Shown here: positions 9,252 to 48,217 of the stretch, piece after piece
Layout: each line of letters begins with the position of its first letter
How positions within the stretch are numbered: position 1 is the first letter of the stretch
Source: an uncultured Candidatus Berkelbacteria bacterium
Lineage (GTDB): Bacteria > Patescibacteriota > UBA1384 > UBA12157 > JAENIV01
DNA length: 64,000 nt
Reading direction: 5' to 3'
NCBI GenBank assembly: GCA_963698075.1
Contig: OY969116.1
Location: forward strand, 670,131-734,130
The notes under the pieces: model-generated
Told to the model about the DNA's origin: nothing
The model's input: the letters and a program-made list of their open reading frames with translations, nothing else
Databases searched by the model: none
Made by a program: the position numbers and the translations under genes

Positions 9252-9256
9252 AAAAA

Positions 9257-17571: not shown

Positions 17572-17605
17572 TCCGACGAATCTTTTCACTCATTAGTCAC
17601 GAATT

Positions 17606-17634: not shown

Positions 17635-17653
17635 ACCCTGAGCCAAGTCGAAG

Positions 17654-17690
17654 GGTTGACAATTATTAGACAATGATGTTAATCTAAAAT
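17654..17690 (+). promoter_or_regulatory. candidate promoter TTGACA-17 bp-TTAATC upstream of paralog 2
   Basis: Consensus -35 and a weak -10. Followed by an AAGGAGGA SD. Confidence 0.3.
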
Positions 17691-17717
17691 GTCGAATATC
17701 CGGCAAGGAGGAGATCG

Positions 17718-18887: not shown

Positions 18888-18908
18888 ACATAATAACTAG
18901 TGGACAAC

Positions 18909-18941
18909 GGGTCGAACTCTCGGCCCGTTTTTCGTTTTTTT
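18909..18941 (+). terminator. rho-independent terminator GGGUCGAACUCUCGGCCC + U-tract (copy of 17606-17634)
   Basis: Same stem as the upstream copy, with one loop substitution, followed by tttttcgttttttt. Confidence 0.6.
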
Positions 18942-19057
18942 GAACCTGTTTTAACGGCTCAGGTGGTGAGCCGGTGAGCCGTTGACTATTTTGCTGATAA
19001 TGATATATTAAAAAGCCCCGCGTGGCGGAAAGCGAACCTCACAACCGAGGCAAGGAG

Positions 19058-26450: not shown

Positions 26451-27427
26451 TGGCCAACTTAACTTTGAAAAAATATGAGCCGAATTTATTTGGGGCCTGG
26501 AATAAATTTGTCGAAACCTCGAATAATGGCACCATTTTTCACCGGCAAGATTTTCTTGCTTATCACGGCGATCGTTTTAAAAAGAATGAACACCATTTGG
26601 TCTGGTTTAAAGGTGATCAAATTTTTGCTTTAATGCCTTTAGGGATTTTTGAAGAAAAAGGCAAAAGAGTTGCCAAATCTCCCTTTGGCGCCAGTTGGGG
26701 CGGCTTGGTCATACCTTCGAAATTTAAGCTCAAATATGCTATGGGAATAGTTGAATCTTTGGTTGAATACCTTAAAAAAAGAAAAATTTCTGAATTTCTG
26801 GTCACGCCGACACCCGGTTGTTATTATCAAGAACTGAACAGCTATTTCGAGTTTGCTCTCACGGCTTTTGGTTCAAAATTAGTTAATCGGGATATCTTAA
26901 ATGTGACGAAAATCCCCGAAAAAGAAGACGAAATTTGGCAGGTCCCGGACCGAGAATGCCGCAATAAAATTAAAAATGCTCTAAGTGTTTTTAAAATAAA
27001 AGAAAATGTTTCAGCCAAAGATTTTTATCCGATCCTCTTGGCAGATAAAAGGCGCCATCACTCGGCGCCGACGCATTCTTTGGCAGATTTGGTATATTTA
27101 CAAAAAAACTTAAAAAATAAGATAAAATTTGATCTTGCTGTCAATATTGAAGACTACCAAGCCGGCATCTGTTATTTTATCGGCAATAAAAATTGCCAGA
27201 TGGCATTCTATATGTCTCAAGAGGATAAAGCCGTCGGTAAAAACGGGATTAATGCTCTGGTTTTCAAGGGTTTTAAAAATGCTGCCTGCGAAGGTTATCG
27301 GTTTATGGATTTCGGGATTTCTTCTATCAACAATCAAATATCAAATATAGGCTTAGTCGAATTTAAAGAAAGTCTTGGAGGGCATCACGGTTTTATAAGA
27401 GACACCTATCAATTAAAAATTAAATGA
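26450..27427 (+). CDS. hypothetical protein, possibly FemAB/GNAT-like acyltransferase
   Basis: Size and weak similarity of pattern only. Lies in the glycan locus. Confidence 0.3.
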   Translation: MANLTLKKYEPNLFGAWNKFVETSNNGTIFHRQDFLAYHGDRFKKNEHHLVWFKGDQIFALMPLGIFEEKGKRVAKSPFGASWGGLVIPSKFKLKYAMGIVESLVEYLKKRKISEFLVTPTPGCYYQELNSYFEFALTAFGSKLVNRDILNVTKIPEKEDEIWQVPDRECRNKIKNALSVFKIKENVSAKDFYPILLADKRRHHSAPTHSLADLVYLQKNLKNKIKFDLAVNIEDYQAGICYFIGNKNCQMAFYMSQEDKAVGKNGINALVFKGFKNAACEGYRFMDFGISSINNQISNIGLVEFKESLGGHHGFIRDTYQLKIK

Positions 27428-27961: not shown

Positions 27962-29764
27962 ATGTGTGGTCTGGTCGGCGTTTTCCAAAAAAAACCCATC
28001 AAAAAAGAAGTTTTAGAAAGAATGACTCGCGTTATCAGGCACCGCGGTCCAGATGACGAAGGTTTTTGGATTGACCCCGCCACGAAAAATATTGGTTTGG
28101 GCCACCGGCGGTTGGCAATTATTGATTTAACCGCCTCAGGCCACCAACCGATGTTTAATGAGAATAAAAATCTCGTCATTGTTTTTAATGGCGAAATTTA
28201 TAATTTCCAAGAAGTTAAAAGAAAATTTCGCCAAAAGCATAGATTTATTTCCAATTCTGATACTGAGGTGATTCTCCATGCCTACGAAGAATGGGGCGAA
28301 AATTGTGTCAATTATTTTAACGGCATGTGGGTTTTTTGTATCTATGATCAGAATAAAAAGTCCTTTTTTATCTCGCGCGATCGATTGGGTATTAAACCCC
28401 TCTATTATTATTTTGATGAGAAAACTTTGATCTTTGCCTCTGAGATTAAGGCAATTTTGAAATATCCTGGGATTAAGGCTGAACTTAATTTCAATGCCCT
28501 GGGTGAATATTTCACTTTTCAAAATATTTTATCTCACGAAACTTTATTTAAAAATATCAATCTTTTAGAGGCGGGCCATAACCTCTATTTTCGGGATGGA
28601 AAATTAGAAAATAAATCATACTGGAAAGCCGAATTTAACAAAAAAGAATTTACGCCCATTCAATGGCAAGAAAAATTAGTCAAAAACTTGCAAGCATCAG
28701 TTTGGCGTCATTTAATCGCCGATGTGCCCGTGGGCACGCTCCTTTCGGGCGGAATGGATTCGACGACCATCGCCTATTTTGCGGCTCAGCGAAATCCCAA
28801 ATTTTTTACTTTCACCGGCGGGTTTGATTTAGAAGGCGCTGAAGGCATGGAAGCAAGTTTAGACGAGAGACATGAGGCGGAAATTGTCGCCCGAAAAGTA
28901 TCCGCTGAGCACTACGAAAATGTCTTGCACCCGATAAACGTCAAACTAGCGATGCCAAAATTAATTTGGCATCTTGAAGATCTTCGTCTCGGGATGTGTT
29001 ATCCTCAATATTACATCTCGAAATTGGCGAGTAAATTTGTTAAAGTTGCCCTTTCAGGCACCGGCGGCGACGAAATTTTCGGCGGTTATCCTTGGAGATA
29101 TCAACTCATTGAAAAAGCCAAAAATCCCGCCGAATTTGATGCCAAACAATATGATTATTGGTCGCGGCTGGTTAAAGATAGTCAAAAAAAGACCTTCTTC
29201 AGCCATAAAACCTTAGACAAAATAGACCTTAAGCGGCCATTTGAAGAATATCAGCAAATTATCGCCCCTGTCTCCGACCAAAACCCGATTGATAAAGCGA
29301 TTTATTTTGAACAAAAAACTTTTTTGCATGGCTTCTTTATTGTTGAAGACAAAATGTCAATGGCTCATTCTCTGGAAATCAGAGTCCCGATGACGGATAT
29401 CGAATTAGTCAAATTGGTTAATTCTCTGCCGCCCAAGTATAAATACCAGAATAATCTCGGCAAGGTCTTATTTAGAAAAACAATGAATAAATTTTTACCC
29501 AAAGAAGTGACGACGAAAAGAAAAACTGGTTTTACTCCACCCGAAGGGACTTGGTATCGAAAGCAGCTTAAAGAATATGTTTCGGAAATAATCTTGGGTC
29601 AAAGAGCTCGTGCTCGCAATTATTTCAACCCTGAAAGCTTGAAAGAAATCTTTTCTGCCCACCTTCGGGGCAAAAAAGATTATCGTTTGCTTCTCTGGTC
29701 TTTGCTTTGTTTTGAATGGTGGAATCGAATTTTTTTGGAAGGTGAAGGGGAAATTTATGAATAA
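27962..29764 (+). CDS. asparagine synthase (glutamine-hydrolysing) family amidotransferase
   Basis: N-terminal nucleophile MCGL. GATase class II domain. SGGMDS PP-loop. Confidence 0.85.
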   Translation: MCGLVGVFQKKPIKKEVLERMTRVIRHRGPDDEGFWIDPATKNIGLGHRRLAIIDLTASGHQPMFNENKNLVIVFNGEIYNFQEVKRKFRQKHRFISNSDTEVILHAYEEWGENCVNYFNGMWVFCIYDQNKKSFFISRDRLGIKPLYYYFDEKTLIFASEIKAILKYPGIKAELNFNALGEYFTFQNILSHETLFKNINLLEAGHNLYFRDGKLENKSYWKAEFNKKEFTPIQWQEKLVKNLQASVWRHLIADVPVGTLLSGGMDSTTIAYFAAQRNPKFFTFTGGFDLEGAEGMEASLDERHEAEIVARKVSAEHYENVLHPINVKLAMPKLIWHLEDLRLGMCYPQYYISKLASKFVKVALSGTGGDEIFGGYPWRYQLIEKAKNPAEFDAKQYDYWSRLVKDSQKKTFFSHKTLDKIDLKRPFEEYQQIIAPVSDQNPIDKAIYFEQKTFLHGFFIVEDKMSMAHSLEIRVPMTDIELVKLVNSLPPKYKYQNNLGKVLFRKTMNKFLPKEVTTKRKTGFTPPEGTWYRKQLKEYVSEIILGQRARARNYFNPESLKEIFSAHLRGKKDYRLLLWSLLCFEWWNRIFLEGEGEIYE

Positions 29765-32541: not shown

Positions 32542-33534
32542 ATGAGGACATTTAGGAATAAAAAAATCTTAATCACTGGCGGCGCCGGTTTTATTGGCTC
32601 ACATTTGGCGCAAGAATTATTGAAATCTGGTTGCCGAATCACCATTGTCGACAAAATCTCATCCAAAATTCCCCAAGTCAAATCAATCCCTCAAAACCTG
32701 AAGAGATTCATTTTAAACAATGGATTAAGGACAGGTTATGATTTTATTTTTCATTTAGCCGGGACGGCCTCGGTGGGAACGTCGGTTGAGAATCCTTTTT
32801 TTGATTTTGAAGAAAATTTATACCAAACTTTAATTTTACTTGAAGCTTTACGAAGCTTGAAAAAATCACCGTTTCTAATCTATGCTTCCTCAGCCGCCGT
32901 TTATGGCATTCCCAAAAAGATGCCTGTCAGCGAAGAGAGCCCTACTTTACCGGTCTCTCCCTATGGCGTCAGCAAACTGGCGGCAGAAAGATATGTCAGA
33001 GTTTACAGCGAGCTTTACCATCTGCCAGCTGTTAATTGCCGTTTTTTTTCGGTTTATGGTCCAGGGCAGAGAAAACAAGTCATTTTTGATTTAATCTCCA
33101 AAATTCAAACAAATCCCCATGGATTAGCAGTTTTAGGGGATCCCAATCAAACTCTTGACTTAATTTATATTGACGATCTCCTTAGGGCAATTATTTTAGT
33201 CACTCAGAAGAGTCGAGGCCTAGGAGAGGTTTATAATATCGCTTCTGGAAAATCTTATAAGATGGCGGAAATTGTACGAGCTCTTGGCGCGACCCTTGGA
33301 ATAAAACCAATCATCAGATATAGTCAAGACACGCGACCAGGTACCAATCTTCAGTGGCGGGTTGATATTTCCAAGATAAAACAATTAGGTTTTAGACCAG
33401 AAATTACCTTGGCAAAAGGGTTGACGATGACTCAAGAATGGTTTGAGGTTCCTTCATTTAGTTCGTCGATAAAGCGCGTAAATTTCTCCAAGACTATAAG
33501 TTCTCACTTTATTCTTGATGATGTGGGTCAATAA
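32542..33534 (+). CDS. NAD-dependent epimerase/dehydratase (SDR)
   Basis: ITGGAGFIGSHL. Catalytic YGVSKLAAE. Confidence 0.75.
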   Translation: MRTFRNKKILITGGAGFIGSHLAQELLKSGCRITIVDKISSKIPQVKSIPQNLKRFILNNGLRTGYDFIFHLAGTASVGTSVENPFFDFEENLYQTLILLEALRSLKKSPFLIYASSAAVYGIPKKMPVSEESPTLPVSPYGVSKLAAERYVRVYSELYHLPAVNCRFFSVYGPGQRKQVIFDLISKIQTNPHGLAVLGDPNQTLDLIYIDDLLRAIILVTQKSRGLGEVYNIASGKSYKMAEIVRALGATLGIKPIIRYSQDTRPGTNLQWRVDISKIKQLGFRPEITLAKGLTMTQEWFEVPSFSSSIKRVNFSKTISSHFILDDVGQ

Positions 33535-34146
33535 TCGCTTAAAAAGAGTATTCATTCCTTCGCCGGAAAAAGATGCCCCTTGGATTTTTTCCGGGTGATG
33601 ATAAAGATGGCGATTTTGTTCATAGAATTTCACGTTTGGGCAATTCAACGCCAAATGAATAGGATGGAAATCAAAAACTTTGAGGCCTGGGTGATTGAGT
33701 TTTAAAGTTTTTAAATTAAAGCTGGCTTTTGGGCCAAAAGTTTCCATGTACCAATAATCCAAAAAGAAAATCGGTAATTCAAGTAAATTCTTGCCAATAT
33801 AAATCGGTTCAATGTTTTTAGCTAAAGGCAAAAGGATATTACTGGTATATTTGATTTTTAGATCCAATAAAACCGGTCTTAATCTTTCGTGGAAGTAAAG
33901 CGAATGATTACGGAGGCCCTGACCTTTCGGGGCAAATTTTTTGATTTTCAGAAATTCTTCTTTATAGTGGGAATAGGTGCCATTGAAATTGATGTGAGGA
34001 TTGATTTCAAAGAGAGGATTTTTTAAAATGGGATATTTTCCGGTCACAAAAAAAGTTGCCTTAAGTTTTTTGTCTTTAAGAATTTTAACCAAACTTTCAA
34101 GAATTTTTTCATCAATCCAATCGGTATCAAAAGTTAAGGCAATCAT
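33454..34146 (-). CDS. NodB/polysaccharide-deacetylase-like protein (paralog of 24791-25468)
   Basis: LTFDTDW and KATFFVTG motifs shared with the paralog. Confidence 0.4.
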   Translation of the reverse strand: MIALTFDTDWIDEKILESLVKILKDKKLKATFFVTGKYPILKNPLFEINPHINFNGTYSHYKEEFLKIKKFAPKGQGLRNHSLYFHERLRPVLLDLKIKYTSNILLPLAKNIEPIYIGKNLLELPIFFLDYWYMETFGPKASFNLKTLKLNHPGLKVFDFHPIHLALNCPNVKFYEQNRHLYHHPEKIQGASFSGEGMNTLFKRLLTHIIKNKVRTYSLGEIYALYRRTK

Positions 34147-34179
34147 TTTATCCTCAAAATTTTCGAATCCAAATAAGCA

Positions 34180-35631
34180 TTATTGGCCATATTTTTTCAT
34201 TACTTTTTTCAAATTATCAATTAAGATCTGGGTGACGATTCTTTCGGAATGATATTTTTTAAACCATTTCTCGCCTTGATGACCGATTTTTTGTCTCAGC
34301 GCGGGATTATTGATAAGTTTGATTAAGACTCTTTCAATCTCCCTCTGGTTATGGACTTTAACGATTGGTGGTTCTTCGGGATACATCCATCGACAAACCT
34401 CATGTTTATAAGACATCAGCAACGGCTTACCAGAAAGCATGACCTCGGGTGCCAAAGCTCCCATGGCCGGTAAAATTGTTTGATCTAAAACAATCTCCGC
34501 TTTTTCGAGCCAATAGGCAAGTAAATGTCTGGGCATTACCCGCTGCCACGTCACATATTTTTCAACTTTTAGCTTTTTAGCCAGCAGTTTAATCTTTGCC
34601 ACATCTAGACCCCATTCCAGAAAAATGAGCCTGAAAGGATTTTTTGTTTTTTTAATAACTTCTGGTAGAGCTTTGATATATTTATCCGTGCCCTTAATGG
34701 CCAAATCATGTCTGACAGGGCAAAAGAGGATTAAATTGTCCGTCTTTCTTTCTCTTTTCACAATTGGCCGGTAAAACCGATGCCATTTCTCTAAAATTGG
34801 ATGGGGAACAGGTTGGATATTTTTTAAACCAAGTTTTTTAGCGGCTTTAATATTGTCTGAGTTGGTAATAAAAACCAAGTCAGCTTTTCTATAGGCTAAA
34901 GCGGTGAGACGCCCGATAGGGCTATTTTCAAAGGGTAAATCGCGAATAGTGCCGTGCTCAAAGGCGATATAAGGATGCTTGCCTATGAGCATGGGATAGA
35001 TCGGGTCGGATGAATAGCCCTGAATGAGGTCATATTGCTCAAAAATTTTTTCAGCCGTTTCCCAAACAAAAAAATAGGGGCGAATATCCGAGATCTTGAG
35101 TTGATCTTGGCGTTTGGGAAAGAATTTTTTAAATTCGGCGATTAACGAATTAATTCGCTGATAATATTTTTTTCTTTTGATTGGCTCAATCGTAAAACTC
35201 TTATGCCAAATTATCCAGTTTTGAAAGATCGAAACTAGTTTCTGAATATTCTTTCTAAGAGGAGACATTTTTGATGAGCCATAACAGAATTGGTATATTT
35301 TTTGATACAAAAAGACGGTAGACTTGGCAGGATGGGCTTTTAAGGAAGTTCTTCGGGGGCCTTTGAGACCGGCCAAAAAACCAGACATTGGACCTTGATA
35401 AAACCACCTTGGCCTTTCAAAATTTCCCAAATTAACCTTTGTCCAATCGGGGTAAAAATCATCTCCGTAGTTGGCTTCTATTTTGGCATCCTCCCATTCT
35501 GGAGAACCCAAAACATGATAGTAATCGTAACAAAGGACATCAGATCGGATCCCTTTTTTTCTCAGTAGTTTTGAGGTTAGATAAGCAATATTGGCAATAT
35601 TGCCAATATGGAGAATTTTAAAATTGGCCAT
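34180..35631 (-). CDS. divergent GT4-like (GT-B fold) glycosyltransferase, 'HIGNIAN' family member 1
   Basis: N-terminal KILHIGNIANIAYL...SDVLCYDYYH. KG(T)D box FCPVRHDLAIKGTD. C-terminal LPAMGALAPEVMLSGKPLL resembling the GT4 E..G..EAMA.G.P motif. Confidence 0.45.
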   Translation of the reverse strand: MANFKILHIGNIANIAYLTSKLLRKKGIRSDVLCYDYYHVLGSPEWEDAKIEANYGDDFYPDWTKVNLGNFERPRWFYQGPMSGFLAGLKGPRRTSLKAHPAKSTVFLYQKIYQFCYGSSKMSPLRKNIQKLVSIFQNWIIWHKSFTIEPIKRKKYYQRINSLIAEFKKFFPKRQDQLKISDIRPYFFVWETAEKIFEQYDLIQGYSSDPIYPMLIGKHPYIAFEHGTIRDLPFENSPIGRLTALAYRKADLVFITNSDNIKAAKKLGLKNIQPVPHPILEKWHRFYRPIVKRERKTDNLILFCPVRHDLAIKGTDKYIKALPEVIKKTKNPFRLIFLEWGLDVAKIKLLAKKLKVEKYVTWQRVMPRHLLAYWLEKAEIVLDQTILPAMGALAPEVMLSGKPLLMSYKHEVCRWMYPEEPPIVKVHNQREIERVLIKLINNPALRQKIGHQGEKWFKKYHSERIVTQILIDNLKKVMKKYGQ

Positions 35632-38074
35632 ATTTTTTCATTACTTTTTTCAAATTATCAATTAAGATCTGGGTGACGATTTTTTTGGAGTGATATTTAT
35701 AAAACCAAAACCGCCCCTCTTTGCCAATTTTTTGAGCGAGTTTTGGATTATTGAGAAGCCTGATGACCTGATGGATAACCTCGGTTTTAGAATAAGCCGA
35801 GACAAGCGGCGGTTTTTGAGGAAACATCCATTGGCAGATTTCATGTCGGTAAGAGATGATGAGCGGTTTCCCGGCCAGCATAGCCTCTGGGGCAAGCGCG
35901 CCCATGGAAGGTAAGATGAGTTGATCAATAATCACGTCCGCTTTTTGGACCCATTTGGCTAATTGATATCTTGGCAGGGGCCTGAGCCACTGGACCCGAT
36001 CTTCGACAGCCAATTTTCTGAGCAATTGTTTGCTTCGAAAAACTTCGACGCCCCAATCGCAAAAAACAAACTTAAGGGGCCAGTGACTTTTTTTGATGAT
36101 CTCGGGGATGGCTTTAATAAAGAGATCCGTCCCTTTAATTTTCCAGTCATGTCGAGCCGGGGAAAAAATAATTTTTTCTGAGTGGGGACAATTGTTGGCG
36201 ATTTTTCCAGGATGCCATTTATCCTCAACAGCATGAGGAATAGGAACATAATTAGTTAGGCCCAATTTTCTGGCAGAGGTTAAGTTATCGGAATTAGAGA
36301 TAAAGACTAAATCCGCCTTGCGATAAGCCAAGGCGGTTAAACGTCCCCGCGGTGAATTTTCAAAAGGTATTTCTCGAAGTGTCCCAATTTCATAAGCAAC
36401 GTAGGGGTGAAAATTGGTCAATAAAGGATAAATCGCGTCAGTGGTGTAACCAAAAATAAGATCATATTTTTTAAAGATTTTTTTAAAGATCTTTATTTGG
36501 AAAAGAAAAAAGCAGATGTCATTAAGAGTCAGCTGGTCTTTTCTTTGGGGAAAAATTTTTTTGAATTCGACCACCAAACTCTCAAAATATTTTTCTTCAT
36601 GTTTATCTATGGAAAATCTGGCTTTAGATGTAATTCTTTCGAAAAACAGATTAATCTTCCGGTTAAGCTTTTTTCTTATCATAAGATATCTTTTTTTCCC
36701 TTTGGGAAACCGTTTAAAAAACCCGGTGTTTAAACCAATAAGAAAAAGCTCGAGCTTTTTCAAACCGACCCACGGATAGATGATTACGTTCAGCCCAAAA
36801 AAGCCGATATTAAACCCTCTGTTGAAGGTCCAATCCAGCCAAAACAAAAATTTATTGAGACCAAATTTTTTATTGCCAATCTTCTGGAGCGGCCCCTGCA
36901 TAAACCAAGAAGGACGTTTAAAACCGTGGAGATTCACCCGAGACCAATCCGGAAAAAAATCATCCCCATAATCTCCCTCGATAATCGCGTCCTCCCATTC
37001 GGGCGCGCCCATTATATGATAGTAATCGTAACATAAAACATCGCTCTCGATGCCTTTTGCTCGCAAATATTTGGAGTTAAGATAGGAAATATTGGCAATA
37101 TTGCCAATATGGAGAATTTTAGGATAATTGCTGATAAAGATATTTCCTTCAGAGAGTTTCAATTCTTGAATGATGGCCTGGGCTTTAAATTCAGAATTTT
37201 TGATTCTGAATTTGTTTAAAATTAGGGAATCTGTTCCTGTGGCAACGATGATAGAATTATTTATTGCCAAAATTTGACCAGGAATCTTTCCATTTTTTTT
37301 GTTTTTGCCAATTTTAACCGGTGGCAAGATTTCAATTTCTTGATTGTTAATAATCGTTCTCGCGGCCGGATAACCGGTAAAAGTTAAGGCTCTAATAAAC
37401 CGGTCGATCTCCCCGGCGCGAGCGTGCCAGTTGATCCATCTATTTTGAGGATAGACTTGTTTATGGTAGCTTCCTTCATTTAATTTTTGAGGGATTTTTT
37501 TAATTTGACCTTTTATAATGAGTTCAAAATTTTTCACAAACATCTTTTTGGCAACTTTCACACATTTAAAATAAAGAGAATGGGCCGTGTCGCGAGAGGT
37601 AATTTTAATCAATCGCTGGTCAATAATTGGACCGGTATCAATTCCCTTATCGATTTGATGAAATGTTACCCCAATTGATTCGTCATTGGAAGCCAGCGCA
37701 TAAACTACCGGCAGACAGCCGCGATTTTTTGGTAGCTCGGCAAAATGAAAATTAAAAATTCCCAATCGAGGGATTTTAATAAAATCTTCTTTTATAATTT
37801 TGTTGTAAGAGAACGAAAAAATAATCTCCGGATTTTCTTTTTTAATGTCCTTGATAAATTTTGGCTCATTGCAGGTTTTTGGTTGCCAATATTTGATATT
37901 ATTTTTTAGACAAAAAGCTTTCAAAGATTTATACCAGGATTTGACCCAAGGATGGTCATCATGATTGCAAATTACCCCGACAATATTTTCTTTTGTTTGT
38001 ATAAGATACTCTAGAGATTCAACGGCCAAATTTTTATTTCCCATTATAATAATTTTGGGTTTAAAGTTTGTCAT
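35618..38074 (-). CDS. bifunctional protein: N-terminal sugar N-formyltransferase domain fused to 'HIGNIAN' GT4-like domain
   Basis: Residues 1-about 200 carry the Fmt/ArnA-type motif FNFHFAELPKNRGCLPVVYAL...GVTFHQIDKGIDTGPII. The remainder is paralogous to 34180-35631, including an identical C-terminal tail IVTQILIDNLKKVMKKYGQ. Confidence 0.65.
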   Translation of the reverse strand: MTNFKPKIIIMGNKNLAVESLEYLIQTKENIVGVICNHDDHPWVKSWYKSLKAFCLKNNIKYWQPKTCNEPKFIKDIKKENPEIIFSFSYNKIIKEDFIKIPRLGIFNFHFAELPKNRGCLPVVYALASNDESIGVTFHQIDKGIDTGPIIDQRLIKITSRDTAHSLYFKCVKVAKKMFVKNFELIIKGQIKKIPQKLNEGSYHKQVYPQNRWINWHARAGEIDRFIRALTFTGYPAARTIINNQEIEILPPVKIGKNKKNGKIPGQILAINNSIIVATGTDSLILNKFRIKNSEFKAQAIIQELKLSEGNIFISNYPKILHIGNIANISYLNSKYLRAKGIESDVLCYDYYHIMGAPEWEDAIIEGDYGDDFFPDWSRVNLHGFKRPSWFMQGPLQKIGNKKFGLNKFLFWLDWTFNRGFNIGFFGLNVIIYPWVGLKKLELFLIGLNTGFFKRFPKGKKRYLMIRKKLNRKINLFFERITSKARFSIDKHEEKYFESLVVEFKKIFPQRKDQLTLNDICFFLFQIKIFKKIFKKYDLIFGYTTDAIYPLLTNFHPYVAYEIGTLREIPFENSPRGRLTALAYRKADLVFISNSDNLTSARKLGLTNYVPIPHAVEDKWHPGKIANNCPHSEKIIFSPARHDWKIKGTDLFIKAIPEIIKKSHWPLKFVFCDWGVEVFRSKQLLRKLAVEDRVQWLRPLPRYQLAKWVQKADVIIDQLILPSMGALAPEAMLAGKPLIISYRHEICQWMFPQKPPLVSAYSKTEVIHQVIRLLNNPKLAQKIGKEGRFWFYKYHSKKIVTQILIDNLKKVMKKYGQF

Positions 38075-39404
38075 AAATTTTAATTAATTTTTCGGTAACT
38101 ACTTTTTGACTATGATATTGAGATATCCATTTTTGAGATTTTCGTCCGTATCTCGAGGCTACTTTTCGGTTATTGACTAATTTGGCTAAATTGGTAGCGA
38201 TTTCCTCACTCGTTTTTGCCAAAATTACCGGCGGCATTTCTTTAAAAGCCCATTGGTATAAATCTTTATCAAACCACATCATCAGCGGTTTAGCTGCTGC
38301 CATTGCCTCCGCGGCGACCGTGCCAAAATAACCTTTGAATTGATCCAAAATAACCTCAGAATTTTTGTAATGTTCAACCAGTAAATTCTTTTTTAAGGGC
38401 GGAGTCCAGATAACCTTTTGAGCAATTTTTAATTTATTTATCAAGCGCTTGCTTTTTCTAACCTCTTGGCCCCATTGGCAAAGAATCAGTTTAGCTTGAA
38501 GGTGAGGCTTGTTTTTAATAAAACGATTGAAACCCTTGATAACCAAGTCATTACCCTTAATCTGCCAATTCTGTCTCGACGGCGAAAAAAATAAAATTTT
38601 TGCTTGATATTTCTTTTTTAGATTTAAACGCGGTTGATAATTAAAAATTTTTTGTTCATCCAAGGGATGAGCGAGATAAGTAAAATTTTCCAGTCCCATT
38701 TTTTTGGCGCCTAAAATGTTATCGGGGTTGGTGATAATCACCTTATCGGCCAAACGATAAGCTAGGGCTGTCAGGCGTCCTTGCGGATTGTTTTCAAAAG
38801 GGGTGTCTCGAATGGTCCCAATTTCAAAAGCAATATATGGTCTTTGACCAGCCAAAAGAGCGTAAATTGGTTCAATCCCATAGCTCTGAATTAGATCGTA
38901 ATTAGAAAAAATTTTTTTCAGCAGCCTGACATGGGGAACATAGGGGATAATATCTTCCATCATTAATCTATCTTTTCTTTTTGGAAATATCCGTCTGAAT
39001 TTAACAATTAGTTTTTTAAAATAACGATATTCTTTATAGGTCAGAGATCCATGATAAGGATTAAGATACTTAATCGTCCCGGGCCAGTAAGAGTTGATTT
39101 TAGCAACGATTTTATTGAGATTCAACCAGTCAAATTTTTTTTTATAACTATATTTTTCGGCAATCTTCTCTAACGGACCATCCATATACCACGATGGACG
39201 ACTAAATTTTTTTAAATTTCTTCGGTCATCAATTTCCCACCATTCAGGTGTCGACATAAAATGGTAAAAATCACGGGAAATAACGTCGGCCTGAATGCCT
39301 TTTTCACGCAAGAATTTGGCATTAAGATAGGCATTATTGGCAATATTACCGATATGAAGGACTCTAAATTTTTTCTTTTGGTAATTTGTTATCAATTTCA
39401 TCAA
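38061..39404 (-). CDS. divergent GT4-like glycosyltransferase, 'HIGNIAN' family member 3
   Basis: RVLHIGNIANNAYL...ADVISRDFYH. FSPSRQNWQIKGND. C-terminal TVAAEAMAAAKPLMM. Confidence 0.45.
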   Translation of the reverse strand: MMKLITNYQKKKFRVLHIGNIANNAYLNAKFLREKGIQADVISRDFYHFMSTPEWWEIDDRRNLKKFSRPSWYMDGPLEKIAEKYSYKKKFDWLNLNKIVAKINSYWPGTIKYLNPYHGSLTYKEYRYFKKLIVKFRRIFPKRKDRLMMEDIIPYVPHVRLLKKIFSNYDLIQSYGIEPIYALLAGQRPYIAFEIGTIRDTPFENNPQGRLTALAYRLADKVIITNPDNILGAKKMGLENFTYLAHPLDEQKIFNYQPRLNLKKKYQAKILFFSPSRQNWQIKGNDLVIKGFNRFIKNKPHLQAKLILCQWGQEVRKSKRLINKLKIAQKVIWTPPLKKNLLVEHYKNSEVILDQFKGYFGTVAAEAMAAAKPLMMWFDKDLYQWAFKEMPPVILAKTSEEIATNLAKLVNNRKVASRYGRKSQKWISQYHSQKVVTEKLIKIYDKL

Positions 39405-40278
39405 TTAATTTGTTTAACTTTCTAATAAAACTTAAGTTTGGTTTATTCTCGTTTTCTCTTAGATCTTCTAAGTATTTTTTAACATATTCTAAGGCCTCTT
39501 TTTTGCCATAGCCGTCTTTTTGCGCCAGGTAGAAAATCTGAACCCCTTTATAATTTTTTAAGGTTTTGTCTAAGTCGCGCAATTTCATTTGGATGGCGCG
39601 ATCATTATATTTTTTGAGATATTCTGAAAAAGTATACTTTGATTCAATTTTTTTGATCACAAAATATTTTGAGATAAGATTAGCTAAATTGTCAATTTTA
39701 AAAGATGTGTGATATTGATGAATTTTAGGTTCGACTTGGGCCTTGATCTTTAATCTTCGATTAATCATGTGAACCAAAGCCATCACGCTCCCGGTGAGCC
39801 AGCCCTGGTGGCTCAGATATTGATCTTGCTGCGGCTCGCGTCCGACGATCAGTCCATAAGGTTTGATCACGCGTCGGAGTTCAGCCAGGATGGGGTCGAT
39901 GGCCGTTTGCGGCAGATGATGCAGGACACTTGAACAAATTACAACCTTAAATTCTTCATTTTTAAAAGGTAGTTTGCGGCCATCAAGGATCCAAAAATTG
40001 CCTTTTGGAAATTTCTTTTTCGCTTCCTTAATCATTTTGGGAGAGATATCCGCCCCCACGAAAATTACTTTTTTAATCTTGGCGAACTGGTCCCACAAAA
40101 TTGCTGGACCGCAACCAAAATCAAGGACCTTATCACCTTCTTGTAATTGACCTTTGAAAAAATTAAAAAAATCTCTTATTTGGACTTTTTCCCAAAAAGT
40201 CGAGTAATATAGCTTATCATAAAGTGGCGCGATTTTATCTTCATATTCGATTTCATCTTTTTTGTAATCTTTGTACAT
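39364..40278 (-). CDS. class I SAM-dependent methyltransferase
   Basis: VLDFGCGPAILW motif I. Methyltransf_11-like. Confidence 0.7.
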   Translation of the reverse strand: MYKDYKKDEIEYEDKIAPLYDKLYYSTFWEKVQIRDFFNFFKGQLQEGDKVLDFGCGPAILWDQFAKIKKVIFVGADISPKMIKEAKKKFPKGNFWILDGRKLPFKNEEFKVVICSSVLHHLPQTAIDPILAELRRVIKPYGLIVGREPQQDQYLSHQGWLTGSVMALVHMINRRLKIKAQVEPKIHQYHTSFKIDNLANLISKYFVIKKIESKYTFSEYLKKYNDRAIQMKLRDLDKTLKNYKGVQIFYLAQKDGYGKKEALEYVKKYLEDLRENENKPNLSFIRKLNKLIDEIDNKLPKEKI

Positions 40279-40283: not shown

Positions 40284-41543
40284 TTAATCAAGTTGGTGAT
40301 TAAAAGTCACTTCTTGATCAAACACAGTAATTAATGGTCGTTTTTTTCTAATCACCTGCATCTTGTAAGCGCGGTCGTGCAAAGAATATGGCTCGTTATG
40401 AAAAGCAGAGCCTTCTTTAGTTTTCTTCGGAAAAAAACCGATCGTTAAATAAAAATCTCCATCGCCAAGTAAAAGCGCTGGCCAAGTTATTTCGACAAAT
40501 CCCTTACCGTTAAGCTTTCCAAGATCGATCGCCTTATGAAAGGTTTCCTCTTCACCAGAGAAAAAACTGGTCGCATAAACACCATCACCTTTAGTTATTA
40601 AACAATAGACACCAGGGCTTTGAATCGGTCTAGGCGTCTGATAAGAAATTTTGACAGTTAGAGATTCGCCCTGCCAATATGAATATTTTTCAACCCCATC
40701 TTTATCGAGTAGTTTAACGTCGGTTATTTTTAACGGTCCAGAGCCAATGATTTTCTTCGTTTCTTTAGTTTTTCCAATCGTTTTGTTTTCAATTTTGAGT
40801 CTTTTGTTAACCTCTTGCATGACGCCCAATTCATATTCTTGACAGATTTCAACCGGGTCACCATCAGCTTTGATTTTACCTTTCTCGATCCAAATTGCCC
40901 GATTGCAGAGCCGTTGGACCAAAAAAGTGTTATGAGAGACAAAAAGAACAGTCGCTCCGCTCTGGCAAAGTTCAGTGATCCTTTTTATGCATTTATTGAT
41001 GAAAAAACTGTCACCGGCGGCAAGGGCTTCATCGATAATTAAAATTTGTGGCTCGATTGCCGTTGCGACTGAAAAAGTCAATCTTGTTTTCATTCCGTCA
41101 GAATAAGTTTTTAATGGTCGATCAATAAATTCTTCCAATTCGGAAAACTCAATAATTGATTGGATTTTGCGATCAATCTCTTTTTTAGACATTCCCAAAA
41201 CCATTCCACCGTTATAGATATTTTCTCGACCAGTATATTCCGGATGAAAACCAGTCCCCAATTCCAAGATGGCGGAGACTTTTCCGTTGACTTTAATCTT
41301 GCCGGAAGTTTTATCTAAAGTTCCTGACAGAATTTTAAGCAAAGTTGATTTTCCGGCGCCATTTCTACCGATTACCCCAACAACTTCACCCTTATTAATG
41401 GTGATATTAATATTTCTTAGGGCTCGAAACTCTTCGTGGAATTTTTTTCTAAATATAACTTCTTTTAAAAGATCTTTCGGTTCTCGATAGATCTTATATA
41501 CTTTTGACAAATTTTTAATCTCGATCGTGATATTACTTTTCAT
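40284..41543 (-). CDS. polysaccharide ABC exporter ATP-binding protein (Wzt/TagH-like) with C-terminal glycan-binding extension
   Basis: Walker A GRNGAGKST. Signature YSDGMKTRL. Walker B ILIIDEAL. About 170-aa extra C-terminal domain as in Wzt. Confidence 0.8.
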   Translation of the reverse strand: MKSNITIEIKNLSKVYKIYREPKDLLKEVIFRKKFHEEFRALRNINITINKGEVVGVIGRNGAGKSTLLKILSGTLDKTSGKIKVNGKVSAILELGTGFHPEYTGRENIYNGGMVLGMSKKEIDRKIQSIIEFSELEEFIDRPLKTYSDGMKTRLTFSVATAIEPQILIIDEALAAGDSFFINKCIKRITELCQSGATVLFVSHNTFLVQRLCNRAIWIEKGKIKADGDPVEICQEYELGVMQEVNKRLKIENKTIGKTKETKKIIGSGPLKITDVKLLDKDGVEKYSYWQGESLTVKISYQTPRPIQSPGVYCLITKGDGVYATSFFSGEEETFHKAIDLGKLNGKGFVEITWPALLLGDGDFYLTIGFFPKKTKEGSAFHNEPYSLHDRAYKMQVIRKKRPLITVFDQEVTFNHQLD

Positions 41544-41618: not shown

Positions 41619-42497
41619 TCATAACGATTTACAAATTTCTTTTATCGGCTGGATATTGATCTCCTTCTTCTGGAGACTGTCCCAGCCATATTTTCGATCT
41701 GTCCAATTATCTCCAATTTTATACCAATAACTAATGCGATCGGTGTTAAAATAAGCCGTCGAATTACTTTTAATACATTTTTCTTTTGGCAAATATCCAA
41801 AATTTGGCTCAAGCGTTAAGAGATAATAATCATCATATAAATTTGGATAATTATCAATATAGTAGGGATATAAGTTCAGTTCTGAAACTGAAGGCCAGTG
41901 TTGGCCAGCAAGAATTATTGGATAATCTATAAGGTCGGCATCAATGATATGCCAATGGTTATTCCAATAAACCCCAGCAACGATGTGAGATGCTAATCCG
42001 ACCAGACGGGCTTGGTAACCATTAGCAAGTGCAATATCAACAATAAGACGGGCAATATGCCCACATCTGCCGGAGCCGATTTCCAGCAAAACAACAGGGT
42101 CAGAAACCACCGAACCATCTTCATAAAGGGGTTGTTGAAAGTTGTGGTTATACATCGTTAAATGAACCTGACGGATTATGTTTTCCCATTTTAATTCCTC
42201 ACTCTGAAAGGGGAAACTTGCTTCCCAAAAAAGTTTTCTTAAAACCGGCTGGCGAGAAACTCCGTAAAGTTCATTCTCAATACCATGAATTACTTGAAAA
42301 TCTATTGCATCTTTAGGATATTCGCCGTATTGGCTTTTCTCAAACATTTTCTCGGGTGTCTGCCAAGTTTTTGCCTTCTCTTGATATTTTGTCCACGAGG
42401 CTGTTTTAAGATATTCGGAAGTTTTAGCATCTAAATCCTGAGGAAAATAAATCAATGAATTTAATACCCAAATTATTAGAAGAATTTTGGCAGTCAT
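41619..42497 (-). CDS. secreted/membrane-anchored transglutaminase-like (Cys-His-Asp) protein
   Basis: GSGRCGHIARLIVDIALANGY...HIVAGVYWNNHWHIIDAD fits a papain-like transglutaminase core. N-terminal signal/anchor. Confidence 0.4.
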   Translation of the reverse strand: MTAKILLIIWVLNSLIYFPQDLDAKTSEYLKTASWTKYQEKAKTWQTPEKMFEKSQYGEYPKDAIDFQVIHGIENELYGVSRQPVLRKLFWEASFPFQSEELKWENIIRQVHLTMYNHNFQQPLYEDGSVVSDPVVLLEIGSGRCGHIARLIVDIALANGYQARLVGLASHIVAGVYWNNHWHIIDADLIDYPIILAGQHWPSVSELNLYPYYIDNYPNLYDDYYLLTLEPNFGYLPKEKCIKSNSTAYFNTDRISYWYKIGDNWTDRKYGWDSLQKKEINIQPIKEICKSL

Positions 42498-42505: not shown

Positions 42506-43303
42506 TTATAAAACATTGGCAAAAAATGGTTTAACTTTTCGGAAAAACTTAAAGCCAAGAATAAAAATAATTATTGACAAACTTACAAAAATAACAAAAC
42601 TCCAGGGATGATTGATCCGGCCATAAATTAAGACATCCCGGTACATATTAATAAGATGGGTCATCGGATTAAGTAAGAAAGGCCAACGAAAGGCCGAAGG
42701 AATCGAATTTTCAAGATAGAGCACCGGTGTGACAAACATCCCGATTAAAAGAATAATAGTCACGATTTCTTTCAGATCGCGCAAATAAACTGCCAGGGCC
42801 GCCAAAATCCAACCAAGGCCAACAGAAAAAATAAAATGAATGAGGATGATTAAGGGCAAAAGGGCATAGGTCCAACTAAGATGGTTGGGCAAGGCCAAGA
42901 TAACAATAATGACAAAAATGGTAAGACCAATAAACAGAGTCAGGAAGCTAGTCAAAATACCATTAATTGGTAAAATATCGATGGGGAAAATTACCTGTTT
43001 GACTAAATTGGCATTGCTGACAATGGAATTGGTGCTTTTTACTAATCCTTCTTGCATCACAATCCAAGGTATCAGCCCGGCAATGGCATAAAGAGCGTAT
43101 TCTAGGGGAGTGGCGCCTTGGCCGATTCTCACTTGAAAAATAAAAGTAAAAATGAGAGTATAAATTCCTACCAAGAAAAGTGGGTAAAAAAGAGCCCAAA
43201 ATAATCCCAAGGCCGAACCGGCGTATCGGTCAGTCAATTCTTTGTAGGACATTCTCATGATGAGAGCTCGGTTTTTCCAAAAAATTTCGAAAACTTTCGG
43301 CAA
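42506..43303 (-). CDS. ABC-2 type polysaccharide exporter permease (Wzm-like)
   Basis: Six TM helices. Size 265 aa. Adjacent to the Wzt-like ATPase. Confidence 0.75.
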   Translation of the reverse strand: MPKVFEIFWKNRALIMRMSYKELTDRYAGSALGLFWALFYPLFLVGIYTLIFTFIFQVRIGQGATPLEYALYAIAGLIPWIVMQEGLVKSTNSIVSNANLVKQVIFPIDILPINGILTSFLTLFIGLTIFVIIVILALPNHLSWTYALLPLIILIHFIFSVGLGWILAALAVYLRDLKEIVTIILLIGMFVTPVLYLENSIPSAFRWPFLLNPMTHLINMYRDVLIYGRINHPWSFVIFVSLSIIIFILGFKFFRKVKPFFANVL

Positions 43304-43366: not shown

Positions 43367-44419
43367 ATGAGTTTCTGTTTTAATAAGAGAATTCTTCATT
43401 GCCCTTATAATTTCGCCAATAATTGGTGGATTCTTTCTCGAGCGGAGCGAAAGTTAGGAATAAAAAGTGATCTTGCTGTATTTGATTGCCATTATTTTTA
43501 CCCGAATTTCGATTTAAATCTGAAAATACCTGGTGTGAGCGTTCCAAATGAGGTAAAACGATGGTGGTTTTTTCGTAAAGCTTTAAAGGAATATGATGTC
43601 TTTCACTTTAATTTCGGCCATTCTATTATCGACTATCCTTACATGAACTTAAATTTTCTTGATTTTCCCATTTTAAAAAGAATGAAAAAAAAGATCGTTA
43701 TCAGTTTTCAGGGTAATGATGCCAGACAGAAAGATATTTATATGAAAAAGTTCGGTCAGAAAGAGATTTTCGCACCATATACTTTATCTGATAAATATTA
43801 TGATTATATTAAAAGAAACCGAATAAAAAAAATTGCCAAATATGCTGATTTTATTTTTGCACTAAACCCAGATATTATGCATGTTCTCCCAAGGAAAACT
43901 CAGTTTTTACCATATGCTGTAAATGATTTTGCGAATAAAACAATTAAAAAAAAACAGAGTCGGAAAATTACAATTGTTCACGCGCCCTCAGACCGCCGAA
44001 TTAAAGGTACAGCTATCGTTGTTCAGATTGTCGAGAAATTGGCAAAAAAATACCCGATCGATTTTAAACTTGTTGAAAATGTCATACATGCTAAAGCCAT
44101 GAAAATTTATAGTCAGGCAGATATTGCTGTTGACCAGCTTTATCTTGGCTGGTATGGAGGGTTCGCGGCTGAATTAATGATGCAAGGCGTGCCTACAGTT
44201 TCTTATTTACGTGAAGAAGATTTGGAGAAATTTATTCCATTTCGAAAAGAGATTCCAATCGTCAATGCCAATCCAGATAATTTATCGGAAGTTTTAGTTA
44301 ATTTGATTGAGAACCCTTCCTTAAGAAAAAAAATTGGATATTTGTCTAAACTTTATGCCCGGAAATATCACGCCCCCATAAAAATTGCTCGAAAAATGCA
44401 AAAAATTTATTCAGAGTAG
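43367..44419 (+). CDS. divergent GT4-like glycosyltransferase (same superfamily as the HIGNIAN proteins)
   Basis: N-terminal ILHCPYNFANNWWILSRAERKLGIKSDLAVFDCHYF parallels ILHIGNIANIAYL...SDVLCYDYYH. HAPSDRRIKGT box. C-terminal DQLYLGWYGGFAAELMMQGVPTV. Confidence 0.4.
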   Translation: MSFCFNKRILHCPYNFANNWWILSRAERKLGIKSDLAVFDCHYFYPNFDLNLKIPGVSVPNEVKRWWFFRKALKEYDVFHFNFGHSIIDYPYMNLNFLDFPILKRMKKKIVISFQGNDARQKDIYMKKFGQKEIFAPYTLSDKYYDYIKRNRIKKIAKYADFIFALNPDIMHVLPRKTQFLPYAVNDFANKTIKKKQSRKITIVHAPSDRRIKGTAIVVQIVEKLAKKYPIDFKLVENVIHAKAMKIYSQADIAVDQLYLGWYGGFAAELMMQGVPTVSYLREEDLEKFIPFRKEIPIVNANPDNLSEVLVNLIENPSLRKKIGYLSKLYARKYHAPIKIARKMQKIYSE

Positions 44420-44429: not shown

Positions 44430-45623
44430 ATGGCCAAATTAAAAATAGTGATGATGGTGACTAACCAGGTATCAAACGACCCAAGAGTGGTTCGAGAAGC
44501 AAGGACCTTGCAAAAGATCGCTGAAGTTGTGGTTTTAGGTTATTATCGATCAATTTTACGTTCGACGCATTACAAGGGTAAAGAAAAAATAAATAATTTT
44601 TTAGTCATCCGTGCTCAAGATAAAGATTGGTTTCGGTCAGGTTTCCGACTTGTTTTTTTATTGAATATTTTTCGCTACTATCTGCAAATGAATCGTTTCT
44701 TTATTACAGAGACAGTTAAGCTGAATCCGGATGTGATTCATTGCCATGATCTTGATACGTTATTAGCCGGTTATTTGGCCAAAAAAAAATTGCAGTCTCA
44801 AAAATCTATCAAGTTGGTTTACGATTTACATGAGATTTGGACCGAACAAGGTTTGTATTTACCGAAATTCGCGTTTTGGTTTTTCCGAAAAGTCGAAAAA
44901 ATTCTCTTAAGGAAAATTGATGTTTTAATTTCTGTAAACAAATCTCTTATTGATGAGGTAGCAAAAATTTATCATCATCGGTTTAATTATCCGACGCTAG
45001 CGCTTTACAACTTGCCTTTATTGATAAAGTTCAAAAAAATCGATAATTTTTCTCAATTCCGACCCAAAAAAATTGTCTATTATCACGGCGGCTATATGAA
45101 AAATCGTGGTCTAGAGGAACTGATTCTTGCTGGGAAGCACTTGGATAAATCGGCGATAATTTTATTGCGAATGGTTGCCTCCGAAGAAAATAAGCGGGAA
45201 CTTGTCGACTTAATTGAAGCAAATAATCTTAAAGATAGAGTTTTTTTGATTGATCCCGTTAGAATGGAAAAAACGATTGAAAAGTCTTTTGGTGCCGATA
45301 TTGGTGTAATTCCTTACATTCCAGTTAATGTTAACAATAAATATTCAGCGCCGAATAAACTGTTTGAGTACCCAATGGCGGGAATGGCCCTGGCAACTTC
45401 AGATTTGGTTGAATTTAGAAAAATTTTTAGAAAATATCAAAATGGGGTGACCTTTAATCCCAAAAAACCTAAAAGCATTGCCCAAACAATTAACCGCTTG
45501 TTTAGAAATCCTTCGCTTCTTGAGAAGATGAAGCAAAATTCACTTTTACAGGCAAAGGACTGTAATTGGCAAAAAGAAGAAAAAAAATTATTAAAATTAT
45601 ATCAATATCTATCGGGAGATTGA
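44430..45623 (+). CDS. glycosyltransferase family 4
   Basis: HCHDLDTLLAGY N-terminal domain. C-terminal KLFEYPMAGMALATSD. Confidence 0.75.
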   Translation: MAKLKIVMMVTNQVSNDPRVVREARTLQKIAEVVVLGYYRSILRSTHYKGKEKINNFLVIRAQDKDWFRSGFRLVFLLNIFRYYLQMNRFFITETVKLNPDVIHCHDLDTLLAGYLAKKKLQSQKSIKLVYDLHEIWTEQGLYLPKFAFWFFRKVEKILLRKIDVLISVNKSLIDEVAKIYHHRFNYPTLALYNLPLLIKFKKIDNFSQFRPKKIVYYHGGYMKNRGLEELILAGKHLDKSAIILLRMVASEENKRELVDLIEANNLKDRVFLIDPVRMEKTIEKSFGADIGVIPYIPVNVNNKYSAPNKLFEYPMAGMALATSDLVEFRKIFRKYQNGVTFNPKKPKSIAQTINRLFRNPSLLEKMKQNSLLQAKDCNWQKEEKKLLKLYQYLSGD

Positions 45624-45631
45624 TTTTAATT

Positions 45632-48215: not shown

Positions 48216-48217
48216 AA

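Follow-up and report, generated by a model that had tools for sequence, protein, structure and literature searches.

The window analysed here is a stretch of 64,000 nucleotides (contig OY969116.1, positions 670,131 to 734,130 of the forward strand), whose minus strand carries a head-to-tail array of three glycosyltransferase-like genes that we denote g1, g2 and g3. By the coordinates of the open reading frames (ORFs), g1 occupies 34180-35631 (483 aa), g2 35618-38074 (818 aa) and g3 38061-39404 (447 aa; the start codon is TTG at 39404 or ATG at 39401), with an overlap of 14 nt between neighbouring ORFs at both the g2/g1 and the g3/g2 junction. This arrangement is as described in an earlier note, drawn up from the sequence alone. 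The note had also treated the genes as three plain paralogs, which is right for their transferase parts: these can be aligned end to end, at 55% amino-acid identity for g1 and g2 and 43% identity for g1 and g3. The middle gene, however, is 335 residues longer than g1 and begins with a formyltransferase (FT) of about 313 residues that had been overlooked. From the ORFs, Pfam, AlphaFold2 (AF2) and Foldseek, g1 is an A-type glycosyltransferase with GT-B fold, belonging to what we call the long form, or 'HIGNIAN' form; g2 joins a sugar N-formyltransferase domain (residues 1-313, 37136-38074), by in-frame fusion, to a long-form GT-B domain that is sister to g1 (residues ~314-818, 35618-37135); and g3 is a long-form GT-B glycosyltransferase of a B-type subfamily. 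Common to all three are an (I/V)LHIGNIAN head, an R..IKG box and a C-terminal G..A.E..(A/S)(G/A)KPL block. The motifs listed in the note are accordingly present throughout, yet g3 deviates in every one of them by one or two residues, with ADV instead of SDV, RQN instead of RHD and GTVAAE instead of GALAPE. A foreign origin of g1 was considered from codon usage and rejected, as the G+C content at third codon positions does not clearly differ among g1 (0.39), the transferase part of g2 (0.43) and g3 (0.35).

An AF2 model of g1, built with a 93-sequence family alignment, adopts a confident GT-B fold (predicted local distance difference test, pLDDT, 93.6; predicted template modelling score, pTM, 0.91). 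In Foldseek, its nearest solved structures are the retaining GT4 enzymes BshA, PimB', HepE, MshA and PimA (E~1e-11, TM 0.6-0.73), and the family profile matches the C-terminal domains (C-domains) of GT4 structures. Pfam Glycos_transf_1 scores 33.4 bits with g1, 56.5 with g2 and 39.2 with g3, low values that nevertheless exceed the gathering threshold of 26.4. The twin-Rossmann fold is present, and the proposed GT-B, GT4-like layout thereby stands, as does the remark that the signature is an unfamiliar one: Pfam and NCBIfam recognise only the generic Glycos_transf_1 C-domain, a single-sequence search of PDB sequences returned no match, and hhalign comparison with a canonical GT4 of the same window aligned only the C-domain. 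Invariant alignment columns comprise G10, N11, P44-E45-W46, P74, W76, Y200, E225, G227, R230, Y247, T256-N257, D259, H277, R307, K313, G341, D383(-Q384), P422 and W456. Of these, R307 and K313-G314 resemble the diphosphate-binding pair of GT4, with K313 aligned to the GT4 Lys and the Arg offset by one to three residues. The E...E pair that the note had named as candidate invariant residues did not survive the alignment. Across the 93 sequences, the first Glu position of the EX7E motif is occupied by Pro (45) or Gly (41) and the second by Glu (30), Gln (28), Lys (24) or Arg (8); g1, g2 and g3 themselves retain the second Glu only, and it is the Asp-Gln pair that is invariant instead. In short, the three proteins are GT4-like in fold while failing two GT4 sequence hallmarks, EX7E and a recognisable N-terminal domain (N-domain). 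The N-domain also contains a helical insertion of 39-148 residues; it has membrane-like hydrophobicity in 22 of the 93 members, g1 and g3 not among them, and a role as membrane anchor was therefore rejected and kept only as a weak hint.

The N-terminal part of g2 matches Pfam Formyl_trans_N (85.8 bits) and Formyl_trans_C (45 bits), and its top NCBIfam match is the formyltransferase half of ArnA (178 bits). The best PDB matches, the ArnA FT domain, WlaRD and QdtF (E~4e-32), are all nucleotide-sugar N-formyltransferases. An N108/H110/D146 triad can be read in the g2 sequence, with a spacing that we take to be the same as that of N102/H104/D140 in ArnA. At the fusion junction (...EGNIF/ISNYPK/ILHIGN), a complete FT is joined in frame to a complete transferase head without loss. 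In the closest multi-gene relative (L081), which has the order Wzm-Wzt-methyltransferase-B-type-FT-WbmS-A-type, the FT is a free-standing protein of 310 aa (8373-9305) that is 53% identical, end to end, to g2 residues 7-313. Because the FT is separate there, the direct fusion of the FT to a head of the A-type apparently took place in the lineage of the window, where the WbmS gene has come to lie behind the array. An FT also adjoins family genes at four other related loci (L006, L023, L060, L066). No second fusion of an FT to a long form was found among the proteins inspected, and literature searches for formyltransferase-glycosyltransferase fusions and for uronamide/Wzt transferases returned no characterised relative. 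The first five codons of g2 resemble a transferase head set before the formyltransferase, and SNYPK recurs right before the internal ILHIGN; this MTNFK-like start and the SNYPK repeat may record the origin of the fusion.

The 3' ends of g1 and g2 are far more alike than the genes that they terminate. Positions 34181-34255 and 35621-35695 agree at 71 of 75 nt (94.7%), more than the roughly 90% previously estimated, and g3 has no such tail. Within this region a stretch of 59 nt is identical between the g1 end (34182-34240, minus strand) and the g2 end (35623-35681, minus strand); it includes ATGGCCAAT, the start of the next frame, and in the g2 copy it holds the g1 start codon. Identity falls to 59% immediately upstream and 28% downstream of this run, and the interiors have diverged strongly, as was claimed, to 55% at the amino-acid and 59% at the nucleotide level. 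Over the last 25 aligned codons, 21 of 22 identical amino acids are encoded by the same codon, against a gene-body background of 0.39 (P=3e-8); the signal over the first 32 aligned codons is weaker (17 of 24, P=0.0014). The longest g1/g2 identical run inside the coding sequence is 58 nt, compared with a maximum of 32 in 5000 column permutations, and three-way informative sites in the last block split 19:0:1, for the g1-g2 tail only. Comparisons of g3 with g1 or g2, by head and tail codon tests and by scans for runs and exchange tracts, gave no significant signal. A near-identical tract with diverged flanks, above permutation and with synonymous sites included, as expected of gene conversion, is found in the g1-g2 tail only. 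The recent exchange that the note had suspected between g1 and g2 is hence statistically solid, as gene conversion or template switching, and is local; concerted evolution of the whole trio is rejected, as g3 belongs to an older subfamily and its head and tail codon tests are non-significant.

What follows the two identical tails differs. Within g2, the ATGGCCAAT that ends the run is the start of g1 (MANFKILHIGN...). After g1, it continues as AATGCTTATTTGGATTCGAAAATTTTGAGGATAAAATGA, reading MAN-NAYLDSKILRIK-stop. Repeat search, reading of the sequence and a head hidden Markov model (HMM) all identify this 15-codon mini-ORF (MANNAYLDSKILRIK and a stop; 34143-34190, minus strand) as the relic of the head of a fourth long-form gene, retaining the family-typical ...IANNAYL.SK.LR... 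sequence. The family head HMM, built without window sequences, matches a 17-residue piece of the relic at E=6e-6, and in a scan of 2946 six-frame pieces the relic ranks fourth, behind g1, g2 and g3. Its ATG overlaps the end of g1 by 11 nt, in the same geometry as the 14-nt g2/g1 junction, and its TGA stop shares an ATGA with the start codon of the WbmS-like gene; the relic, which bridges these two genes, may still serve translational coupling. The g3/g2 junction (38060-38074, TATGACAAACTTTAA, with g2 starting MTNFK) in turn mirrors the g2/g1 junction (35617-35631, TATGGCCAATTTTAA, with g1 starting MANFK). The paralog head after the g1 copy, together with the shared junction sequence, indicates that the junction as a whole, tail plus next start, was copied between two sites of the array, and that a further gene copy was deleted down to 15 codons.

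Of the three genes, only g1 and g2 have the shared 5' palindrome of the earlier note in perfect form. A 22-nt sequence, ATATTGGCAATATTGCCAATAT, encoding (H)IGNIAN(I), lies at 35588-35609 in g1 and, as a repeat search showed, at 37089-37110 in g2, whereas the g3 copy (39335-39355) is imperfect. Among 72 family heads (from the window and the 80 best related loci), only those of g1 and g2 are palindromic at 18 of 18 positions. The palindrome arises because the codons of IGN (ATT GGC AAT) are the reverse complement of those of IAN (ATT GCC AAT), so that the opposite strand also reads IGNIAN; the head HMM weakly matches antisense pieces at 35581-35673 and 37037-37216 on the plus strand. A function as a DNA or RNA element was rejected, with none of the 69 other family heads fully palindromic, and the palindrome is a by-product of coding and shared ancestry. 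Scanned against Rfam and for tRNA genes, the window gave no match, and a promoter and terminator scan stayed at background level.

Relatives of the long form are widespread. A search with the N-domain alone retrieved 889 clusters at 50% identity out of 1.84 billion, 370 of them at E<=1e-30, and relatives occur in 232 GTDB species representatives from many phyla, among them Saccharibacteria, Berkelbacteria, Planctomycetota, Nitrospirota, Cyanobacteria, Bradyrhizobium, Legionella, Francisella, Xylophilus, Mariprofundus and Gaiellaceae. The distribution across the candidate phyla radiation (CPR) and beyond, which the note had wished to see, is therefore a broad one. Source annotations say 'glycosyltransferase' or 'hypothetical' only, and the plasmid collection held no homolog. 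In a neighbour-joining tree, g1 groups with the transferase part of g2 inside the A-type clade, and g3 falls into the B-type clade with P0019, P0065 and P0030. Two or three long-form genes are present at 26 of the 80 related loci.

The window contains three further relatives, all on the plus strand, which had been counted as distant paralogs in a six-member uncharacterised family. They are indeed related, but as a separate short-form sister subfamily, such that three long and three short forms make up one superfamily apart from canonical GT4 by phmmer and profile comparisons. The first (43367-44419, 350 aa) has the head RILHCPYNFANN, an SDRRIKGT box and a DQ...G..A.E block (hhalign 98%). Its AF2 model is a GT-B fold (pLDDT 95.5) with Foldseek matches to GT4 and GT5 enzymes, and it has no match to Pfam Glycos_transf_1. 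The second, identified by phmmer, lies at 52497-53555 (352 aa). In the third (48164-50032; Pfam, phmmer), a hexapeptide acyltransferase is joined through a hydrophobic stretch to a short-form glycosyltransferase-like C-terminal part; homologs of that part, of about 400 aa and without the acyltransferase, are a fixed member of the cassette described below in other phyla. Short forms match each other at 1e-14 to 1e-38 and the long forms at 1e-7 to 1e-16, and the four canonical GT4 genes of the window are linked to neither, except for a weak match between 48164 and 11250 (2e-5). In profile-profile comparison, the two forms align over 270 columns (99.7% probability, E=4e-27), sharing the ILH...ANN head, the R..KG box and the D-Q...G..A-E block.

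Five N-domain residues of the long form, E225, H226, R230, D259 and H277, behave as a near all-or-none pentad in 110 family ORFs from the 80 loci: 92 ORFs keep all five, 16 keep none, and single ORFs keep four or one. Copies devoid of the pentad retain R307, K313, D383 and Q384 in the C-domain. All 17 loci with a variant copy also hold a canonical copy, typically in the order variant-DegT-canonical. Against this background the array is unusual. The pentad is complete in g1, yet g1 has Ile at Asn15, a position that is Asn in all 91 alignment members. In g2, His226 is replaced by Ile (codon 36386-36388), Asn15 by Ile and Thr256 by Ser, and in g3 the pentad histidine is likewise Ile (codon 38820-38822). 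The resulting four-of-five state of g2 and g3 was seen once among the 110 other ORFs. The His-to-Ile changes may reflect altered specificity or lost catalysis, judging from the sequences. A g2-g3 conversion tract at the E-I-G-T motif, which would explain the shared change, was rejected; local codon similarity looked suggestive, but the three-way informative-site scan was not significant (P=0.11).

The array forms part of a minus-strand operon with the order Wzm, transglutaminase-like protein, Wzt, S-adenosylmethionine (SAM) methyltransferase, g3, g2, g1, relic and WbmS-like protein. The Wzm ABC-2 permease (42506-43303; ABC2_membrane, 55.5 bits) is separated by the transglutaminase-core protein (41619-42497), a homolog of which is present at only 2 of the 80 related loci, from the Wzt ABC-transporter ATPase (40284-41543; ABC_tran, 88 bits), which ends in a carbohydrate-binding Wzt_C domain (49 bits). 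Directly upstream of g3, and overlapping it by 41 nt, Pfam identifies the SAM-methyltransferase (39364-40278), whose homologs elsewhere adjoin long-form transferases or are fused with them (recurrent fusions P0016, P0323, P0312 and P0325). The last gene of the operon encodes the WbmS-like, polysaccharide-deacetylase-like protein (33454-34146; PF22537, 120.9 bits); its ortholog in L081, situated between the FT and the A-type transferase, is 53% identical. Candidates for chain termination adjoin the array in the methyltransferase, the FT and the WbmS-like genes. Flanking operons on the plus strand encode a WbpA/WbpB/WbpD/WbpE/WbpI-like route to 2,3-diacetamido-uronic acids, several short-chain dehydrogenase/reductase (SDR) epimerases or dehydratases, of which one is LegB-like above the NCBIfam cut-off, nucleotidyltransferases, acetyltransferases and further GT4 and GT2 genes. 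Two AsnB-type glutamine amidotransferases (27962-29764 and 45566-47542, both plus strand) are cassette partners of the array. Within 10 kb on either side at the 80 related loci, and counted without a background control, SDR genes are found at 59 loci, a short-form relative at 54, AsnB-type amidotransferases at 52, Wzt at 39, Wzm at 36 and a DegT aminotransferase at 35. The recurring order is SDR-AsnB-Wzm-Wzt-(methyltransferase)-long form-short form-SDR-short form-AsnB, seen in Nitrospiraceae, Mariprofundus, Pseudanabaena, Francisella, Planctomycetes and others, Nitrospirae, Proteobacteria and Cyanobacteria included. The link to a dedicated uronamide chemistry, proposed in the note from the window itself, gains backing from the AsnB-type genes at these loci.

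Taken together, these results directly establish the GT-B fold, the GT4-related C-domain, an operon with Wzm and a Wzt bearing a carbohydrate-binding domain, the conserved cassette, the FT fusion and the local g1-g2 exchange. Beyond this, we consider it probable, with some reserve, that g1, g2 and g3, lying in one translationally coupled glycan-export operon, encode cytoplasmic GT-B glycosyltransferases from a distinct and widespread GT4-related clade, and that the array arose by duplication, fusion and exchange. The three would act on a lipid-linked glycan at the cytoplasmic face of the membrane, adding, and possibly terminating it with, N-acylated uronic acid or uronamide residues, and the Wzm/Wzt ABC transporter would then export the product. 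Given the WbpA/B/E/D/I-like pathway and the two AsnB amidotransferases in the window, N-acylated hexuronic acids or uronamides are the probable sugars. By coupling a nucleotide-sugar N-formyltransferase to a transferase, g2 probably makes or handles an N-formylated residue, and the methyltransferase, the formyltransferase and the WbmS-like enzyme could produce a non-reducing-end cap that is read by the C-terminal domain of Wzt. As to history, g3 and an A-type gene would represent an old pair. The A-type gene would have been duplicated in the lineage of the window to yield g1, g2 and a now-deleted copy, and the formyltransferase gene, separate in the closest relative, would have been fused to one of the A-type copies. 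More recently, gene conversion or template switching appears to have copied a short tract that spans the gene junction, with g2/g1 and g1/relic as the two sites involved. The tandem array and the conversion tract are ordinary paralog evolution; the details of most interest lie in the FT-transferase fusion and in the pattern of the pentad.

A number of points weigh against this interpretation. Residues 1-290, the N-domain, match no Pfam or NCBIfam model at E<0.01, the GT4 motif EX7E is not conserved in the family, and no member of the clade has been biochemically characterised in the literature searched. The figures for AsnB and Wzm/Wzt are raw co-occurrence counts. The putative capping role of the methyltransferase, FT and WbmS-like protein is drawn from the fusions and from analogy with E. 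coli O8/O9a and the Bordetella wbm variable region. Some copies in the array may be catalytically altered or inactive, given Ile at the pentad histidine of g2 and g3 and Ile at Asn15 of g1 and g2. The host, moreover, probably belongs to the CPR and lacks an outer membrane, and 'O-antigen' is for this reason an analogy only.

The substitutions in the array lend themselves to another explanation, in which only g1 works and g2 and g3 are impaired pseudo-glycosyltransferases, retained as scaffolds or substrate presenters with a nucleotide-sugar-binding C-domain; the transferase-like domain of g2 would then tether the formyltransferase to an assembly complex or to its nucleoside diphosphate sugar substrate. 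The near all-or-none behaviour of the pentad, the variants that keep R307/K313/D383/Q384 and always stand beside a canonical copy, and the change of His226 to Ile in both proteins, with T256S and N15I in addition in g2, all fit this idea. Yet g2 and g3 have each lost just one of the five pentad residues and none of the C-domain invariants. All three ORFs are intact and linked by translational coupling, and retaining GT4 enzymes need no general base. Short forms, furthermore, have Gln at the corresponding position, such that the histidine may tune specificity instead of driving catalysis. We regard impairment of g2 and g3 as unlikely. The same N-domain residues, an invariant Glu-His...Asp...His set in a domain outside every curated family, could also mean that the GT-B scaffold has been turned to non-Leloir chemistry with another phospho-activated donor, as in TagF-like polyol-phosphate transferases, or to an inverting mechanism with His226 as base. 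Both EX7E glutamates have been lost in the family, and the ribose-binding Glu position varies among Glu, Gln, Lys and Arg. We judge this quite improbable: Leloir enzymes of GT4 or GT5 account for all of the best matches in structure and profile searches, the family never varies in the R..K-G pair by which GT4 enzymes typically bind the diphosphate, and the locus is rich in nucleotide-sugar biosynthesis genes, with no CDP-polyol genes seen.

Two further alternatives concern the tails and the fusion rather than the enzymes. Without any recombination, selection could have kept the 59-nt stretches the same for the sake of a function of the DNA or RNA, such as translational coupling, a ribosome-binding region or a regulatory hairpin, and they do carry the ribosome-binding region and the downstream start codon at both junctions of an operon in which all gene junctions overlap. 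However, over 50 nt of the upstream coding region even the synonymous sites are all identical, the g3/g2 junction, although its geometry is the same, is only loosely similar, and the paralog-head relic behind the g1 copy points to copying of the junction. With the Rfam search empty and the terminator and promoter scans at background, selection of this kind is very improbable. It would be more surprising still if the tail identity, the FT fusion or both were artefacts of assembly or sequencing, such as the collapse of a repeat or the loss of a stop codon. In the protein collections the fusion is represented by a single member on one contig, as an artefact might be, but assembly k-mers usually exceed the 59 nt of the repeat, whose flanks are unique, a complete FT and a complete transferase head are joined in frame without loss, and the contig is 929 kb in length.

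A bolder extension of the favoured GT4-related interpretation would have the long and short forms constitute a separate CAZy-level family that relies for catalysis on the N-domain Glu-His/Arg/Asp/His pentad and the C-domain Asp-Gln pair instead of EX7E and serves as the polymerase and capping machinery of an amidated-uronic-acid cassette, with pentad-less or His-less paralogs as non-catalytic partners and g2 as the first enzyme to formylate and transfer a nucleotide sugar in one polypeptide. The cassette, comprising two AsnB genes, two to three SDR genes, Wzm/Wzt and a methyltransferase, would be previously unrecognised and shared across phyla. This joint proposal is possible, if doubtful. If the assignment to a GT4-related clade is true, several hundred clusters now labelled 'group 1 glycosyltransferase' or 'hypothetical' form a coherent clade, marked by a signature of its own, accompanied by a sister family and set in a fixed gene neighbourhood across at least ten phyla, with cultivable Bradyrhizobium, Xylophilus, Mariprofundus, Nostoc, Anabaena and Francisella among them. 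The clade would then offer a defined, testable target in the search for the transferases of uronamide-containing, ABC-exported glycans and, for studies of mechanism, naturally occurring paralogs with and without the pentad. In the context of CPR biology, it would mean that a genome of ~0.9 Mb invests heavily in a decorated surface glycan.

Elsewhere in the window, several genes are of separate interest. A 789-aa ORF (56625-58994, plus strand) joins a canonical GT4 (residues ~20-336) to a Polysacc_synt membrane domain (Wzx/MOP flippase-like), and a separate Polysacc_synt gene lies at 50029-51525; with these genes beside Wzm/Wzt, the locus has both ABC-type and flippase-type export components. 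Another plus-strand ORF (53585-55849, 754 aa) contains two tandem GT4 modules, with two sets of Glyco_transf_4 and Glycos_transf_1 matches. A second WbmS-like paralog (24791-25468, plus strand) sits within a nucleotide-sugar operon, followed by an SDR gene and then by a FemAB-family protein (26450-27427, plus strand) with a weak match to a PEP-CTERM-associated FemAB model, a hint that the glycan may carry an amino acid or a peptide as substituent. Three consecutive plus-strand ORFs of 335-389 aa at 16564-20188 have neither a Pfam match at E<=1e-5 nor a homolog at the 80 related loci. The G+C content is about 0.50 at 2001-6000 and 18001-20000, compared with 0.35-0.40 in the glycan locus, and long ORFs overlap on both strands around 3131-4666.

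Compared with the CAZy GT4 enzymes of known structure (BshA 2jjm/3mbo/6n1x, PimB' 3oka, MshA 3c4q, PimA 2gej and HepE 4xsu), the long form has in common the twin-Rossmann GT-B fold, the Glycos_transf_1 C-domain, an Arg...Lys-Gly pair at the start of the C-domain, a glycine-containing beta1-alpha1 loop and a C-terminal helix that crosses back to the N-domain. It differs in its unrecognised N-domain with the helical insertion, in the beta1 loop itself (G-N-I-A-N-N in place of the Gly-rich GT4 loop) and in the absence of a conserved EX7E, the position of which is preceded by the invariant Asp-Gln. With the sugar N-formyltransferases (the ArnA N-domain, WlaRD, QdtF and the Brucella WbkC and Francisella WbtJ pathways), g2 shares Formyl_trans_N/C and the Asn-His-Asp triad. 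In ArnA, however, the partner of the FT is a decarboxylase, and in the other systems, as in L081, the FT stands alone, whereas in g2 it is fused to a glycosyltransferase.

As regards glycan export, E. coli O8/O9a relies on the WbdA polymerase, the WbdD methyltransferase/kinase terminator and a Wzt with a carbohydrate-binding domain for ABC-dependent export with terminal capping. The window resembles this system in its Wzm/Wzt with Wzt_C, its methyltransferase beside the transferases and its several GT-B transferases per operon, although these are single-module proteins, unlike WbdA; the comparison with WbdA and WbdD is by established knowledge, not by sequence. A further parallel is the wbm O-antigen locus of Bordetella bronchiseptica, which encodes three AsnB-like amidotransferases (WbmC/I/Z) along with Wzm/Wzt (PMC2615507) and has a variable region (wbmS, wbmR) predicted to modify the terminal sugar (PMC3849452). 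Although its host is probably a CPR bacterium and not a proteobacterium, the window, with its WbpA/B/E/D/I-like route to 2,3-diacetamido uronic acids, shares with this poly-L-GalNAc3NAcA/uronamide system Wzm/Wzt, AsnB-type amidotransferases and a WbmS-family protein.

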